4,495 bases of DNA, from assembly GCA_000004695.1 (NCBI GenBank), contig CH709173.1:1-4495 (forward strand). The letters run 5' to 3'. Below are positions 88-4,495 of the stretch, in pieces. The number at the start of each line of letters is the position of its first letter. The first letter of the stretch is position 1. This stretch comes from Dictyostelium discoideum. Taxonomy: Eukaryota. A program made the position numbers and the translations under genes. Under the pieces are notes generated by a model. It had not been told where the DNA came from. It ran no database searches and was given only the letters and a program-made list of their open reading frames with translations.

Positions 88-767
88 TTTAAAAGAACTG
101 GTGATTGGTTTTGAAAGCATTGATATTATTGATGAAGTTGAAGAAATCTAAAATAATACTTTTTTTGGTTTTTTTTTAGATTAAATTTGCTTTTAAGGGG
201 GGTTTTTCTTCGCTGTGTATGGATTCTATATTTTTAGCAAATTTACCTATCGATGGGCACTTTTTGAGTTACAAATGAAGAGTCAATTTTTTATTTTGAA
301 ATTTATTCAGGTGTTAAATTATTAATTGAAAAAAAAAATTTTTTAGAATATTTAGATTTCTCAAAAGACTATGAGCAGGGGATTTATAAAAATTATAAAT
401 CTGGAGAACAATTTAAAAAAATAAAAAATTCAATTTTATATAAATTTATTTTATTAAGAATATTTATTGACGGAATGAGTCATCAAGGTAGATCAGATTA
501 TACTATAATGGGGGATTTTGAAAATTATGTTGGCCCATTTTTTAAAATATGCCATGCCAACTTAAAAAATGGACTGGAAATAAAATTGTTTTATTTATTG
601 TTCCAAAAGAATGGTTTTACAATATACATCAAACAATTAAAAAATTATTTTCAGCGCAATTTAATAATAAATTAATAATTAAAGATAATAATGGATATGA
701 TTATGAAATTATAACATATGGATTAACAATCACAGCGGCGAAAATCAACACTTTAAAGCACCTTTAA
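88..767 (+). pseudogene. Degenerate partial paralog (pseudogene fragment) of the C-terminal conserved domain of the gene at 2962..>4495
   Basis: Hand translation matches the downstream protein in four segments. (1) 95-150: ELVIGFESIDIIDEVEEI* vs EFLMLGIENSISLKLLEKF. (2) 219-267: MDSIFLANLPIDGHFL vs MDKLFMEDFQIKGETF. (3) 280-534 in one frame: ESIFYFEIYSGVKLLIEKKNFLEYLDFSKDYEQGIYKNYKSGEQFKKIKNSILYKFILLRIFIDGMSHQGRSDYTIMGDFENYVG vs HSIFYFEIKKVLETLLNKKQFFERIDFDTDFETGIYTNYKSGQQFKDLKNKNKNKIVLLRIFTDSMQCQNKKDYTIMLDIENYIG (about 56% identical by eye). (4) 549-767 in a different frame: KIVLFIVPKEWFYNIHQTIKKLFSAQFNNKLIIKDNNGYDYEIITYGLT vs KLLLFVVPNDWLLNFHQTIRALFSSF/GNGFNLIIENEQIDVIPFGLT. The colinear segments are separated by in-frame stops (taa 148-150, tag 235-237, tga 265-267) and a 29-nt net insertion relative to the downstream copy near 530-600. 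Similarity ends at 767, equivalent to about 4160 in the downstream gene. No zinc-finger or N/E-rich region is present upstream. Confidence 0.6.
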
Positions 768-780
768 ATCCAAGTACTCT

Positions 781-960
781 TTTTAATATATATTAATAAG
801 TATACTTAATAAGTAATACTTATTAAGTATACTTAATAAGTATACTTATTAAGTACACTTTATTAAGTATTACTTAATAAGTATACTTATTAAGTATACT
901 TTATAAGTATACTTTATAAGTACTACTTAATAAGTACACTTATTAATATATATTAATAAT
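781..960. repeat. Array of about 11 palindromic decamers AAGT(A/C)(T/A)ACTT with 12-14 bp period, flanked by inverted termini TTAATATATATTAATAAGT(A/G)TACTT
   Basis: AAGTATACTT is its own reverse complement and contains GTATAC. Copies or variants start at about 799, 813, 827, 840, 852, 866, 881, 893, 905, 917 and 932. 783-807 is the reverse complement of 932-956 with one mismatch, so the whole block is roughly self-complementary. Confidence 0.85.
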
Positions 961-1087
961 TAGTTATTATTCTTTTAAATGTTTTATATGGGAATCGAAC
1001 CCGCGACCTCCCTTTTCAGAAGTTCCGCGGATGGAATATTTTAGATGGGAATCGAACCTGTGACCTCCCTTTCCGGAAGTTCCGTTT

Positions 1088-1093
1088 AAAAAA
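1088..1093 (-). terminator. T6 run on the minus strand, 5 nt downstream of the tRNA-like unit: pol III terminator-like
   Basis: Minus strand reads ...TTCGATTCCCATATGCAACA TTTTTT AAACGG. T-runs of 4 or more terminate pol III. The 3' layout (T-loop, 5 nt, 7 nt, 1 nt, T6) mimics a tRNA gene 3' end. Confidence 0.35.
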
Positions 1094-1101
1094 TGTTGCA
1101 T

Positions 1102-1158
1102 ATGGGAATCGAACCCGTGACCTCTTACATACTAAGCTACCATATGAGCTAAATAAGC
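1102..1158 (-). pseudogene. tRNA-like pseudogene or tRNA-derived pol III unit (A-box-like plus B-box; anticodon arm too short)
   Basis: Minus-strand read: GCTTATTTAGCTCATATGGTAGCTTAGTATGTAAGAGGTCACGGGTTCGATTCCCATATG. TAGCTCATATGG resembles the A-box/D-arm (TRGCNNAGNGG), and the B-box follows about 30 nt later. The T-stem has one mismatch (ACGGG/CCCAT). Only about 16 nt lie between the D-arm and T-stem, where about 22 are needed. No 5' acceptor strand is complementary to the 3' side ATGCAAC. Hence not an intact tRNA. Confidence 0.4.
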
Positions 1159-1227
1159 TTTGATTATTTTTCAATATAAATAGCTGAAATATTAATGTAA
1201 AAAAATTAAAAAAAATAATAAAAAAAA

Positions 1228-1357
1228 TGAAACTATAAAACACAAATAAAATGATATGTTTTATTTTTTAATTTAATGTTGTATAAATCTTTGTAAATAC
1301 ACTGAGAAATAATATTCAGAATATTTCTGAAACTATAAAACATAAATAAAATGATAT
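1228..1357 (+). repeat. 30-bp direct repeat pair TGAAACTATAAAACA(C/T)AAATAAAATGATAT at 1228-1257 and 1328-1357 (exactly 100 bp apart, 1 mismatch)
   Basis: Direct comparison of the two copies. A weaker similarity of the following 20-30 nt (tctttgtaaa...gagaaataat vs tctttctgaaaaataat) suggests a diverged 100-bp tandem duplication. Confidence 0.8.
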
Positions 1358-1560
1358 TATATAAAAAATAACATAATCTTTCTGAAAAATAATTTTTTTT
1401 TTTTTTTTATTTTTTTTATTTTTATTTTTTTAGTAATTGTTGACTAAAACCTATAAATATTTTCATTTATGTAACTACTGTATTCTAAACTTTACTACAA
1501 TTATATATTTGATATGTGTTTATTATTAAATTACCATTATAAATTGTAAAAAATTACTTT

Positions 1561-1670
1561 TTTAATTTTTTTTTTTTTTTTTACCTTTTTTTTTTATCTT
1601 TAATTTTTTTTTTTCTTTTTTTTTACCTTTTTTTTTATCTTTTTTTTTTACTTTTTTTTTTTTTCCAAAA
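1561..1670. repeat. T-rich simple repeat, (T)9-14 interrupted periodically by ACC / ATC / AA
   Basis: ...t14 acc t10 atc ttt aa t12 c t9 acc t9 atc t10 ac t14 cc: about 20-bp periodic interruption of poly(T). Confidence 0.85.
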
Positions 1671-1741
1671 TATTATTGATACATTTGTTGTTAAAATACA
1701 TTGATATTATTAAAAAAATTTAAATATTTTTATGTGTGATG

Positions 1742-1775
1742 AAAAAAAATCAAAAAAAAAAAAAAAAAAAAAAAA
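1742..1775. repeat. poly(A) tract (A8 T C A24)
   Basis: Direct reading; A24 uninterrupted at 1752-1775. Confidence 0.9.
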
Positions 1776-1980
1776 TTTAGGAATTTTTTTTTAACACAAA
1801 AAAAAAATAAAAAATTTTGTAATTTTTTTTTTTTTTAACGAAAAAAATAATATAATAAAATAACAATATAAATAATAATTTAGATAAATAATTGAAATAA
1901 AATAAATAATATGAACACAAGAATAAAAATTTAAATAAAAACAAATATGCTTTATTCACAGCAAAGAAAAATGCACCTTT

Positions 1981-2040
1981 AAAGCCAATTTAAAGCAAAT
2001 ACAATTTAAATTGGCTTTAAATTGGCTTTAAATTTGCTTT
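1981..2040. repeat. Inverted repeat built from mirrored 11-bp units: AAAGCCAATTT-AAAGCAAAT | ACAATTT | AAATTGGCTTT-AAATTGGCTTT-AAATTTGCTTT
   Basis: AAATTGGCTTT (2008-2018, 2019-2029) is the reverse complement of AAAGCCAATTT (1981-1991). AAATTTGCTTT (2030-2040) is the reverse complement of AAAGCAAATTT, matching 1992-2000 with a small insertion. A hairpin or cruciform with tandemly repeated arms can form. Confidence 0.8.
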
Positions 2041-2100
2041 TTAAAAAGGTAATTTTAAAGATATTTTTAAGGTCATTTAAAATTACATTAAAAATGACCT

Positions 2101-2161
2101 TTTAAATTTATTATAAAGCGGTTTTTAAATAATGTTTTAATCACTTTATAATAAATTTAAA
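2101..2161. repeat. Perfect 18-bp inverted repeat TTTAAATTTATTATAAAG ... CTTTATAATAAATTTAAA with a 25-bp spacer
   Basis: 2101-2118 is the exact reverse complement of 2144-2161. Adjacent smaller inverted repeats: AAGGTCATTT 2069-2078 / AAATGACCTT 2092-2101; GTAATTTT 2049-2056 / AAAATTAC 2079-2086; near-palindrome GTAATTTAAAATTAC 2177-2191. Confidence 0.9.
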
Positions 2162-2237
2162 AAAGTTATTTTTAATGTAATTTAAAATTACTTATTAATC
2201 CTTTTTTAAGCTTTTATTAATTATATTTTTTAAAATA

Positions 2238-2270
2238 CATTTTAAATGCATTTTAAATACATTTCAAATC
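2238..2270 (+). repeat. 3 x 11-bp tandem repeat CATTTTAAAT(G/A) / CATTTCAAATC
   Basis: cattttaaatg cattttaaata catttcaaatc read directly. Confidence 0.7.
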
Positions 2271-2302
2271 AATTTTTACACTATTTATTTCAAATTTATT
2301 AT

Positions 2303-2375
2303 AAAAAAAAAAAAAAATAAGAAAATAAAAAAAAAAAAAAAAAAATTAAGAAAATTAAAAAAAAAAAAAAACTAA
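2303..2375. repeat. A-rich low complexity with periodic TAAGAAAAT / TTAAGAAAATT insertions
   Basis: a15 taagaaaat a20 ttaagaaaatt a14 ct a5. Confidence 0.85.
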
Positions 2376-2753
2376 AAAGATAACCAAATTAATTTTAATT
2401 CTTTATTTATTTGTTCCAGTGGCAATTGAATTCTATTATTATTATTTTTATTAATTAATAATAAATAAGTGTTTCAGTTGCCTTGGGTTTTATTTTATGT
2501 TATTTTAAATTTTACTTCTCATTTCAAAAAGCGAAAAATATCAAAAAAAAAAAAAAAAAAAAAATTTAATTATTTGTTTTGCATATTTATATTATAAGTA
2601 TAAACATACATATAAAAAAAGATTTTTTATTTTTTATTTTTTATAATTAATAAACAATTAACGAGTGCACAGGTATATTATTGCATTAGTGTAGTTTTAC
2701 AATAAATTGGGCAGATTTTATAGTTTTTTTTTTTTTTATTTTAAAAAGAAAAA

Positions 2754-2830
2754 GGTATAGACAGGGTCATAGGTTCCCCGTCATTTTTTGAAAATGGGGT
2801 ATATCCCTCTAAATATAAAATTTTAAGTAC
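2754..2830 (+). promoter_or_regulatory. GC-containing island with imperfect palindrome CCCCGTCATTTTTTGAAAATGGGG (2776-2799) and TATA-like ATATAAAA (2813-2820); candidate promoter/enhancer of the gene at 2962
   Basis: It is the only G/C-bearing segment in about 500 bp of >90% AT sequence. It lies about 130-210 bp upstream of an ATG in AAAATG context, and TATA-like elements at 2813-2820 and 2851-2857 follow it. No TSS data are available, so this is positional inference. Confidence 0.3.
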
Positions 2831-2961
2831 TAAATCATATATCTACTTGCTATAATGCTAAAATTTGAATAAAATGAAAAAAAAAAAAAAAAAAAAAACG
2901 TAAAAACTCGAGGAAAAAAAAAAAAAAAAATATTATTTTTAATTTCCAGCCAGCAAACAAA

Positions 2962-4095
2962 ATGAATTTAAATAACATATCATGCATTAATTGCAGAGAA
3001 AAATTAAAGAATTTTAAAAATATTATTATTCATTATATTATGCATAAAAATATATGTCCATTTTGTCTTGCATATTACCGTTCTTATAAACAATTTTATG
3101 ATGTAAATGGACATTTCAACACCAAAAAATGTAAAAATGAACAAAATAAAATTATTACAAATAATCAAAAAAGAGATATCTTTTATAAAAAATTAATGGA
3201 TATTACTGGTGAAAAAATAAAATATCCAACAAATGATCCAGATGACCCATGTAAACATTTATGTAACCAAAACCAAGATGAAATTTTTTATCAAGAAAAT
3301 AATGAAAATAATGAAAATAATCAAACAATTGATAATGTAGAAAATCATGATATAATTGGGTTGGTACATAGTGAAGATGAAAACAATGAAATTAGAATAG
3401 ATGAAAATGAAGCAAACATTAATAATGAAAATAATGAAAATAATGAAAATGAAAATGCTCAAAACGAACCAATAAATAATAATCTAAATAATAATTTAGA
3501 TAATGAAAAATCAAAAAAAAAATTAAATGAGACTGAAATTGAATTTTTAATGTTGGGAATTGAAAACTCAATAAGTTTAAAGCTACTTGAAAAATTTAAA
3601 AGTTTTATTGACAAAAATAAAACCAATTTAAATCAAATAAGATACACACCTCAATATATGGATAAATTATTTATGGAAGATTTTCAAATAAAAGGAGAAA
3701 CATTTATAAATAAAAATTATGATCACTCAATTTTTTATTTTGAAATTAAAAAAGTATTAGAAACTTTATTAAATAAAAAGCAATTTTTTGAAAGAATAGA
3801 TTTTGATACAGATTTTGAAACTGGAATTTATACAAATTATAAAAGTGGTCAACAATTTAAAGATTTAAAAAATAAAAATAAAAATAAAATTGTATTACTT
3901 AGAATATTCACTGATAGTATGCAGTGTCAAAACAAGAAAGATTATACTATAATGCTGGATATAGAAAATTATATTGGAAATGAATTTAAAAATAATAAAT
4001 TATTATTATTTGTAGTACCAAATGATTGGTTACTTAATTTTCATCAAACAATTAGGGCATTGTTTTCATCTTTTTTGGTAATGGCTTTAATTTAA
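2962..4095 (+). CDS. Protein with two N-terminal C2H2-type zinc fingers, an N/E-rich low-complexity linker and a conserved C-terminal domain of unknown function (possible transposase-like or domesticated element protein); segment upstream of a -1 frame break
   Basis: 377-codon ORF from the track. ATG at 2962 in AAAATGAAT context, preceded by an in-frame TAA. Residues 8-28: C-x2-C-x12-H-x3-H with a hydrophobic C-x3-L-x5-I-x2-H pattern (classic C2H2). Residues 32-57: C-x2-C-x15-H-x5-C. Residues about 112-186 are an N/E repeat (NNENNENNE...). Residues about 190-377 are conserved with the upstream pseudogene copy. AT3-biased codon usage is consistent with the surrounding genome. Confidence 0.75.
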   Translation: MNLNNISCINCREKLKNFKNIIIHYIMHKNICPFCLAYYRSYKQFYDVNGHFNTKKCKNEQNKIITNNQKRDIFYKKLMDITGEKIKYPTNDPDDPCKHLCNQNQDEIFYQENNENNENNQTIDNVENHDIIGLVHSEDENNEIRIDENEANINNENNENNENENAQNEPINNNLNNNLDNEKSKKKLNETEIEFLMLGIENSISLKLLEKFKSFIDKNKTNLNQIRYTPQYMDKLFMEDFQIKGETFINKNYDHSIFYFEIKKVLETLLNKKQFFERIDFDTDFETGIYTNYKSGQQFKDLKNKNKNKIVLLRIFTDSMQCQNKKDYTIMLDIENYIGNEFKNNKLLLFVVPNDWLLNFHQTIRALFSSFLVMALI

Positions 4096-4495
4096 TTATT
4101 GAAAATGAACAAATAGATGTTATACCGTTTGGACTGACAATGGATATTCCAGAATTTAGAGCATCGTGTAAACTTAATGGACATAATTCAAATGAATATG
4201 CATGTCACACATGTGACAAACCAAGAGATGGTTTATTTATTTGCCATTCAGGTACATTAACAAAACAAGAAGATATTACAAATTTTCACTCCACCAAACC
4301 AAATTATGCTGAATTAAATGCTGATATAGAATTAAAAAAAATATGGGAAAAAAAAGCAAAAGATATTGGTATCAAAGGTGTGGGCAGAGGGTGGGTCGAA
4401 CCTTTGTCCATTAATTATTTAAAAACACAACCAGACATATTACATAATATTTTATTAGGTGTCGCACAAAGATGTTTATATTACAATTTTGATAA
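4056..4495 (+). CDS. Continuation of the same gene in the -1 frame (3' partial, open to the window end)
   Basis: The frame with codons starting at multiples of 3 is open from 4056 to 4495. Its hand translation begins GIVFIFFGNGFNLIIENEQIDVIPFGLTMDIPEFRASCKLNGHNSNEYACHTCDKPRDGLFICHSG... and continues VGRGWVEPLSINYLKTQPDILHNILLGVAQRCLYYNFD. Its start (FGNGFNLII...IPFGLT) is colinear with the upstream paralog (FNNKLII...ITYGLT). One extra T in the run 4071-4076 would fuse it to the 2962 ORF. Confidence 0.55.

Follow-up and report, generated by a model that had tools for sequence, protein, structure and literature searches.

A palindromic repeat array of Dictyostelium discoideum is very probably the 5′ subterminal repeat region of the DNA transposon DDT-B

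The array of short palindromes at positions 781-960 of a 4,495-nucleotide stretch of Dictyostelium discoideum DNA (hereafter the window, meaning the whole stretch analysed) is, as judged from comparison with related loci, very probably the subterminal repeat region at the 5′ end of a D. discoideum DNA transposon, DDT-B. The role we consider most likely for it, with our confidence about evenly divided, is that of multiple binding sites for a protein encoded by the element, and the explanation as a whole, DDT-B identity together with protein-binding subterminal repeats, we regard as likely. The array is thus an ordinary component of a transposon that has already been catalogued. The DDT and thug elements of D. 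discoideum were reportedly first described and catalogued by Glockner et al. in 2001.

The window is very AT-rich (20% G+C) and, read from its sequence, is a nest of insertions of the sort usual for these loci. Two classes of transposon ends, here called A-type and B-type, were found when every CACAG...GAAAA motif was listed with its neighbourhood in the window and in eight related loci (L001-L008), and both classes are represented in the window: positions 731-1956 hold the 5′ part of a second B-type element and positions 1957-4495 an A-type element, with the following features.

181-217, minus strand: A-type terminal fragment (reverse complement CACAGCGAAGAAAAACCCCCCTTAAAAGCAAATTTAA), to the left of and abutting the pseudogene fragment
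218-730, plus strand: piece from within a B-type (DDT-B-like) transposase gene, a frameshifted pseudogene that was target DNA for later insertions, which cut it on both sides
731-797, plus strand: B-type 5′ terminus, CACAGCGGCGAAAATCAACACTTTAAAGCACCTTTAAATCCAAGTACTCTTTTTAATATATATTAAT, with a tip that opens CACAGCGGCGAAAA...
783-959, no strand assigned: whole palindromic block, with inverted caps TTAATATATATTAAT... and ...ATTAATATATATTAA
798-942, no strand assigned: eleven-unit array of AAGTATACTT and its variants, in which units 2, 6, and 10 are the 11-bp ones and the spacers are 3-4 nt of A/T
978-1148, minus strand: three tandem 57-bp tRNA-derived fragments, each with the B-box GGTTCGATTCC
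1149-1956, plus strand: AT-rich 5′ interior of the B-type element to which the array belongs, cut at 1956 by the next insertion
1957-2290, plus strand: A-type 5′ terminus and TTTAAA-type subterminal repeats, CACAGCAAAGAAAAATGCACCTTTAAAGCC...
2962-4495, plus strand: A-type transposase gene, with a frameshift near 4070-4076, running off the window

The original prediction described eleven units at a period of about 13 bp framed by inverted terminal 25-mers, and both elements of that description hold. Eight exact copies of AAGTNNACTT start at 798, 825, 838, 851, 879, 892, 905, and 932 (the mean in the shuffled window is 0.18, and eight copies were reached in 0 of 200 shuffles), and three units with an 11-bp core stand at 811 (AAGTAATACTT), 865 (AAGTATTACTT), and 918 (AAGTACTACTT), giving eleven units of the form AAGT(N2-3)ACTT across 798-942 with a spacing of 13-14 bp; TRF returns a period of 13 with 12.9 copies over 789-959. 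Of the 25 positions in 783-807, 24 match 932-956 read as its reverse complement, and complementarity between the two 81-nt arms, 780-860 and 879-959, is 89%. Modelling of hairpin stability, which had been proposed as a check, places the single-stranded DNA fold of the block at -53.5 kcal/mol (z = -11.9 vs. shuffles), i.e., strongly hairpin-prone. The eleven-unit layout of the window is common to L001 and L003, where units 2, 6, and 10 are again the 11-bp ones and one unit takes the form of the variant AAATATACTT, and the block caps TTAATATATATTAAT/ATTAATATATATTAA are conserved in L001, L003, and L006. Across the 166 units of all loci the conserved core is a 12-bp palindrome, TAAGTATACTTA, with a single A/T position after it that varies.

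Palindromy had been noted at both the 10-bp and the 175-bp scale and is indeed present at both; the larger palindrome, however, mostly arises automatically from the stringing together of self-complementary units. When the eleven units and ten spacers were rearranged at random between fixed caps, the permuted arrays folded equally well (94 of 200 at least as stable as the real order; permuted mean -53.2 kcal/mol), and we mostly rejected the 175-bp palindrome as a selected structure on the ground that permuted unit orders make hairpins as stable. Ungapped self-complementarity does stand above the permuted orders (0.84 vs. 0.64 +/- 0.10, the real value being reached in 38 of 1000), because the three 11-bp units are placed symmetrically at positions 2, 6, and 10.

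What the array belongs to is apparent from the element ends. B-type tips are CACAGGGGCGAAAA-type termini, CACAG(G/C)GGCGAAAA, and occur in a 5′ form, CACAG(C/G)GGCGAAAATCA..ACTTTAAAGCACCTTTAAATCCAAGTACTCTT..., and a 3′ form, CACAGGGGCGAAAAAAA..ACTTAAAAGCATCTTTAAAGTAGGAA..., each followed by a AAGTATACTT array; A-type ends read CACAGC(A/G)A(A/T)GAAAA..CACCTTTAAAGC.. and then run into TTTAAA-containing repeats. In the window the first unit lies 67 bp inside the B-type tip at 731, which makes the array the subterminal repeat block of a transposon end and bears out the suggestion, one of several made for it, that it is a terminal structure of a mobile element. The same 5′-type terminus is found at L001 (17848, minus strand) and L003 (2699), and its variants, CACAGGGGCGAAAATCAGTAC... 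and, in L006, CACAGGGGCCAAAATCGATAC..., at L005 (4148 on the minus strand, 5978, and 18606), L006 (4434), L007 (5326), and L008 (12383, minus strand). The module formed by terminus, array, and tRNA-like fragments recurs between differing flanks in L001, L003, L005, L007, and L008. It is full, with inverted caps and two or three tRNA-like fragments, in L001 (17848 to 17390, minus strand) and L003 (2699-3120), and takes variant forms in L005, L006, L007, and L008; the tRNA-like pieces behind the terminus and array of L006 are more diverged.

We scanned 155.7 kb of related sequence for clusters of at least two strict units, and all 23 clusters found lie in B-type subterminal regions, with both ends of the element represented. 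In 18 of them the outer unit is 54-67 bp from a recognised tip; the others comprise three inner parts of long 3′ arrays, one array behind a mutated tip (AACAG), and one truncated cluster, a 5′ array cut by a nested B-type insertion. Only three isolated single units occur elsewhere in the 155.7 kb, and strict units are found at 0 of 36 A-type ends, where instead TTTAAA reaches 11.6 per 300 bp against a background of 1.9. The strict pattern was used throughout, as a loosened one (A[CT]TT for the 3′ half) gave false units in the A-type TTTAAAGT...ATTT repeats. In the 155.7 kb scanned, the motif is thus not the ubiquitous microsatellite-like repeat that would have spoken against the original prediction; the arrays there are confined to this one family of transposons, whose 5′ module also takes in the tRNA-like fragments. 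Arrays stand at both ends in all five complete or deleted B-type copies, which are bounded as follows.

L008 6615-12024: complete copy, 5410 bp, with matching 2-bp target-site duplication (TSD)
L005 5978-12222: complete copy, 6245 bp, with matching 2-bp TSD
L006 4434-12226: complete copy, 7793 bp, with matching 2-bp TSD
L005 1656-4148: deleted derivative, 2493 bp, both arrays kept, with matching 2-bp TSD
L001 14807-17848: copy with flanks of AT repeats, its TSD therefore ambiguous

Each of the five keeps at least two units at each end, TSDs match in four, and the number of units per array ranges from 2 to more than 20.

The termini, the target-site duplications, the subterminal repeats, and the transposase together point to membership of the CACTA/Mirage/Chapaev (CMC) superfamily, a placement read from sequence. 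Elements of this group have terminal inverted repeats beginning CAC(T/A)(A/G) and TSDs of 2 bp in the Mirage type and 3 bp in the CACTA type. Here CACAG termini are present at more than 40 ends in both subfamilies and are inverted at the two ends of bounded copies, and 14 of 18 innermost plus/minus end pairs show a 2-bp TSD (chance 0.17, P = 3e-8), with a 3-bp match in 1 of 18. Reiterated subterminal motifs occupy both ends, AAGTATACTT in B-type and TTTAAA repeats in A-type elements, for the latter of which a complete copy measures 5034 bp.

The transposase required a longer route. The window ORF at 2962-4495 is 95% identical to hypothetical proteins of D. discoideum (P0001), members of a multi-copy family whose full-length representatives have about 715-865 aa and whose contigs place these genes among DIRS-1 and Skipper-like retroelements. 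No transposase family and nothing significant was returned when the Dictyostelium proteins were scanned directly against Pfam, a set that took in the protein of the window, seven members of its family, the zinc-finger region at the N terminus, the beta-rich domain at the C terminus, and ORF2; the superfamily assignment for that reason rests on profile-profile links. A search of 1.84 billion representatives with a profile built from 16 members of the family recovered 56 distant proteins at E <= 1e-3, and among the 44 of these that were scanned, Transposase_21 was matched by seven, DUF1258, which we take to be a Caenorhabditis family, by five, and DUF4218 by three; two distant proteins passed the gathering score of Transposase_21 (PF02992). 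Comparison of the family with 14 longer distant proteins in hhalign (A1 vs. A3) gave 99.8% probability and E = 1e-28 over 474 columns, in which the invariant D328, D405, the E of RKGRENR, CxxC, and HxxxH fall opposite residues that are likewise invariant in the distant proteins (D, D, E, C..C, and H...H). These links are strong but indirect evidence for a DDE transposase of the Transposase_21 (Tnp2/TnpD) type. An AlphaFold2 model built from the 16-sequence alignment was too poor for use (pLDDT 35).

We propose that the element would move by cut-and-paste, with a DDE transposase related to Pfam Transposase_21 and with a second, spliced ORF. According to a 2017 review, the transposases of Dictyostelium DNA transposons are without similarity to known transposases, and none of these transposons has been studied in detail (PMC5633606); the profile methods used here make the DDT transposases placeable in the CACTA/Mirage/Chapaev group. 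The second spliced gene encodes about 257-287 aa and lies 3′ of the transposase gene in both subfamilies, with blocks conserved between A and B; the ORF2 protein has no Pfam match. Its positions are as follows.

L006 10610-11532: ORF2
L002 12676-13630: ORF2
L004 10596-11561: ORF2
L008 10460-11384: ORF2

The case for the array as a set of binding sites is built by analogy. CACTA subterminal repeats are TNPA-bound cis-determinants of transposition, asymmetric, unequal at the two ends, and palindrome-forming, and their divergence between subfamilies goes along with that of the proteins the elements encode (PMC2613891). The Dictyostelium arrays have this anatomy in common, in that they are present at both ends at a fixed offset of 54-67 bp, in unequal and variable numbers and with a subfamily-specific motif, and they are retained in every bounded copy, the deleted derivative included. 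Binding of a dimeric protein to the palindromic units is plausible from their sequence, and candidate binders would be the zinc-finger (Cys/His-rich) N terminus of the transposase or the spliced ORF2 product. Binding to the TAAGTATACTTA units would then mark and pair both ends for transposition, as TNPA does on En/Spm.

The alternative that survives best, which we consider possible and against which we give the binding sites roughly even odds, is that the array is a functionless minisatellite, a 13-bp unit that arose in AT-rich subterminal DNA, multiplied by slippage or unequal exchange, and has been passively carried along. The variation in unit number between copies, from two to above twenty, speaks for it, as does local homogenisation: the spacer is TAT throughout the 3′ array of L006, and a non-palindromic variant, AAGTATATTT, is spreading in L002, L005, and L008 and has become dominant in L002 and in the long array at L005 1656. 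That the 175-bp hairpin is no better than its permuted unit orders fits passive carriage as well. On the other hand, the core motif is common to both ends although the DNA between tip and array differs between 5′ and 3′, and it is kept in every sampled B-type sublineage, including that of D. cf. discoideum. It has been retained while the internal 5′ region beyond the array diverged to 67-77% identity (77% for window 772-1644 vs. L005 3975-3095, 67% for window 874-1779 vs. L005 6012-6767). Passive carriage would also have to accommodate the at least two units at each end of all five bounded copies and the presence of a different palindromic motif at the same place in the sister subfamily.

Binding sites are also preferred over a source of hairpin RNA, a reading we hold to be unlikely, in which the near-perfect palindrome of about 175 nt, if transcribed, would form double-stranded RNA and be cut by Dicer into small RNAs with a silencing effect on the element. 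The hairpin is predicted to be very stable, as given above, and small or miRNA-like RNAs have been reported from thug-S, another D. discoideum DNA transposon (PMC4894637, PMC6161686). Yet the Rfam matches in the array are of a generic AT-hairpin type and all far below their gathering scores (mir-5014 at 28 bits vs. 101, SpF43 at 27 vs. 70, mir-iab-4 at 24 vs. 73), and the 3′ arrays and short arrays of two or three units occupy the same position without comparable structure; an RNA role would, moreover, be compatible with binding sites and would not exclude them. The thug-S/miRNA lead was dropped, as nothing links thug-S to the B-type element. A separate hairpin of TTTAAAG-type repeats lies in the A-type end at 1967-2043, where Rfam reports mir-1781 on both strands at 29 bits against a gathering score of 68, taken as a chance match to an AT-rich palindrome.

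Directly after the array follow the three tandem tRNA-derived fragments at 978-1148, which form a conserved internal piece of the B-type 5′ region. The original prediction spoke of a tRNA-like cluster adjoining the array, and its adjacency and tRNA-derived character stand, but it is not a tRNA gene cluster in its own right: ARAGORN finds no tRNA genes in the window or in L001-L006, and Rfam has no tRNA match at E <= 1 in the window. Two or three homologous tandem fragments of about 57 bp, each with a B-box, also follow the array at L001 17480-17590, L003 2960-3100, L005 3650-3760, L007 5450-5560, and L008 12040-12170; in the window, L001, and L003 they fall at element nucleotides ~250-420. DDT-B carries an A/B-box (tRNA-promoter-like) motif in its fragment of nucleotides 428-1, which is an integration target of TRE5-A, and the authors explicitly left open any link of this motif to DDT-B replication (PMC9012585). 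One might imagine that the 5′ module of eleven-unit array and tandem Pol III B-box fragments acts as one unit beyond end recognition, for example through joint recruitment of TFIIIC and an element-encoded palindrome-binding dimer, an idea we rate as a long shot; if true, such a joint module could be a chromatin boundary, a landing pad for tRNA-targeting retrotransposons, or a site for extrachromosomal replication of the element.

The upstream gene copy had been said to lose its similarity at 767, coincident with the edge of the array, which was in consequence put forward as a candidate breakpoint. The fragment at 218-730 is 84-90% identical to the interior of intact B genes (compared at L003 6618-7109, L004 8612-9103, L005 8612-9103, and L006 8615-9109), and its translation follows P0018 as far as ...YGLT with no match beyond. 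Similarity to the intact relatives is lost at 730/731, the first base of the transposon terminus (CACAG...), 67 bp before the first unit, and 767 only marks where an ORF that continues into that terminus meets its stop codon. What ends the pseudogene at 730/731 is a transposon insertion, and the junction is the element tip and not the array; since, in addition, unrelated flanks elsewhere carry the identical module, a cruciform or recombination origin of the truncation is unnecessary. That the palindromic array itself truncated the upstream copy as a recombination or cruciform breakpoint is accordingly very improbable, for all that it lies near the pseudogene end and could in principle extrude a cruciform, given that the match stops exactly at base 1 of the terminus, that the terminus and array stand together in many unrelated flanks, usually with 2-bp target duplications, and that ordinary insertion accounts for the junction.

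The order of events suggested by these junctions is that the window's B-type copy, starting at 731, landed in the transposase gene of an older element of its own type (218-730) and that an A-type relative later cut the former at 1957. Window 181-218 matches A-type ends in L001 (BLAST), and window 1957-4405 is 97.8% identical in DNA to L001 9007-11434; the pseudogene (B) and the downstream gene (A) belong to different subfamilies, with proteins 44% identical. For annotation, what looked like a pseudogene truncation, a palindromic array, and a tRNA-like cluster is one nested transposon insertion and not three oddities.

Three further observations concern the nest itself. The AT-rich 5′ interior of the B-type element has a direct repeat, GAAACTATAAAACA(C/T)AAATAAAATGATAT, whose copies at 1228-1256 and 1330-1358 are ~100 bp apart. 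The frameshift in the T-run at ~4070-4076 splits the A-type transposase frame (..LFSSF / GNGFNLIIEN..) relative to intact P0005, and this copy is either a pseudogene or the product of a homopolymer sequencing error. At L008 4503-4600 a B-type element has landed within the AAGTATACTT array of a second one, and the abutting of several other B-type and A-type ends suggests that the elements often land in their own kind.

Among known elements, DDT-B is the closest counterpart. It is a putative DNA transposon with a consensus of 5471 bp, described in a 2022 note from the Winckler laboratory (PMC9012585), and we take the B-type element to be DDT-B because its length (5410 vs. 5471 bp) and the position of its B-boxes match. 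The two have in common the organism, a multi-copy nature, the length as found in one copy, a tRNA-like A/B-box within the first ~430 nt, and copies nested with other repeats; no difference was found in this comparison, which is one by length and A/B-box feature. Literature searches on DDT-A, DDT-B, DDT-S, and thug yielded brief mentions only. By the same token the A-type element is probably DDT-A and its derivatives of about 750 bp probably DDT-S. Such non-autonomous A-type elements are numerous, measure about 750-760 bp, and mostly have 2-bp target duplications, the exception in the following list being L004 7141-7899.

L003 4043-4801: non-autonomous A-type element
L003 4841-5599: non-autonomous A-type element
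L004 4033-4781: non-autonomous A-type element
L004 7141-7899: non-autonomous A-type element
L005 13954-14704: non-autonomous A-type element
L008 2313-3066: non-autonomous A-type element

Plant CACTA elements (En/Spm, Tam1, Tgm) share with the B-type element a short motif present in repeated copies directly internal to short terminal inverted repeats that open with CAC..., unequal unit numbers at the two ends, the potential to form palindromes or stem-loops, and divergence of the motif between subfamilies along with the transposase (PMC2613891). They differ in that their repeats are direct and inverted copies of an asymmetric motif of 12-17 bp, whereas here each unit is itself palindromic and set in a regular 13-bp tandem; in a TSD of 3 bp as opposed to 2 bp; and in possessing TNPA, of which no homologue is recognisable here, given the lack of a Pfam match for ORF2. 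Mirage-type and animal elements of the CACTA superfamily, such as SmTRC1, have the 2-bp TSD in common with the Dictyostelium element and probably also the Transposase_21-related DDE transposase, whose sequence similarity is detectable by profile methods only, while the termini of the animal TRC elements start with CCC and those of the Dictyostelium element with CACAG (PMC1636069).

The A-type sister shares with the B-type element the terminal CACAGC..GAAAA..CTTTAAAG, the 2-bp TSD, and homologous transposase and ORF2 genes, but in place of AAGTATACTT units, absent from its 36 ends, it has TTTAAAG/TTTAAAT subterminal repeats at ~11-bp spacing. Palindrome-containing A-type subterminal repeats are seen at window 1957-2290 and at ends in L001-L005, L007, and L008, and similar A-type subterminal stretches at L003 2220-2350 and L002 21780-21840 contain tRNA-like pieces. 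Two sister subfamilies with different palindromic subterminal motifs thus offer, in a genetically tractable organism, a testable pair for the divergence of end recognition.
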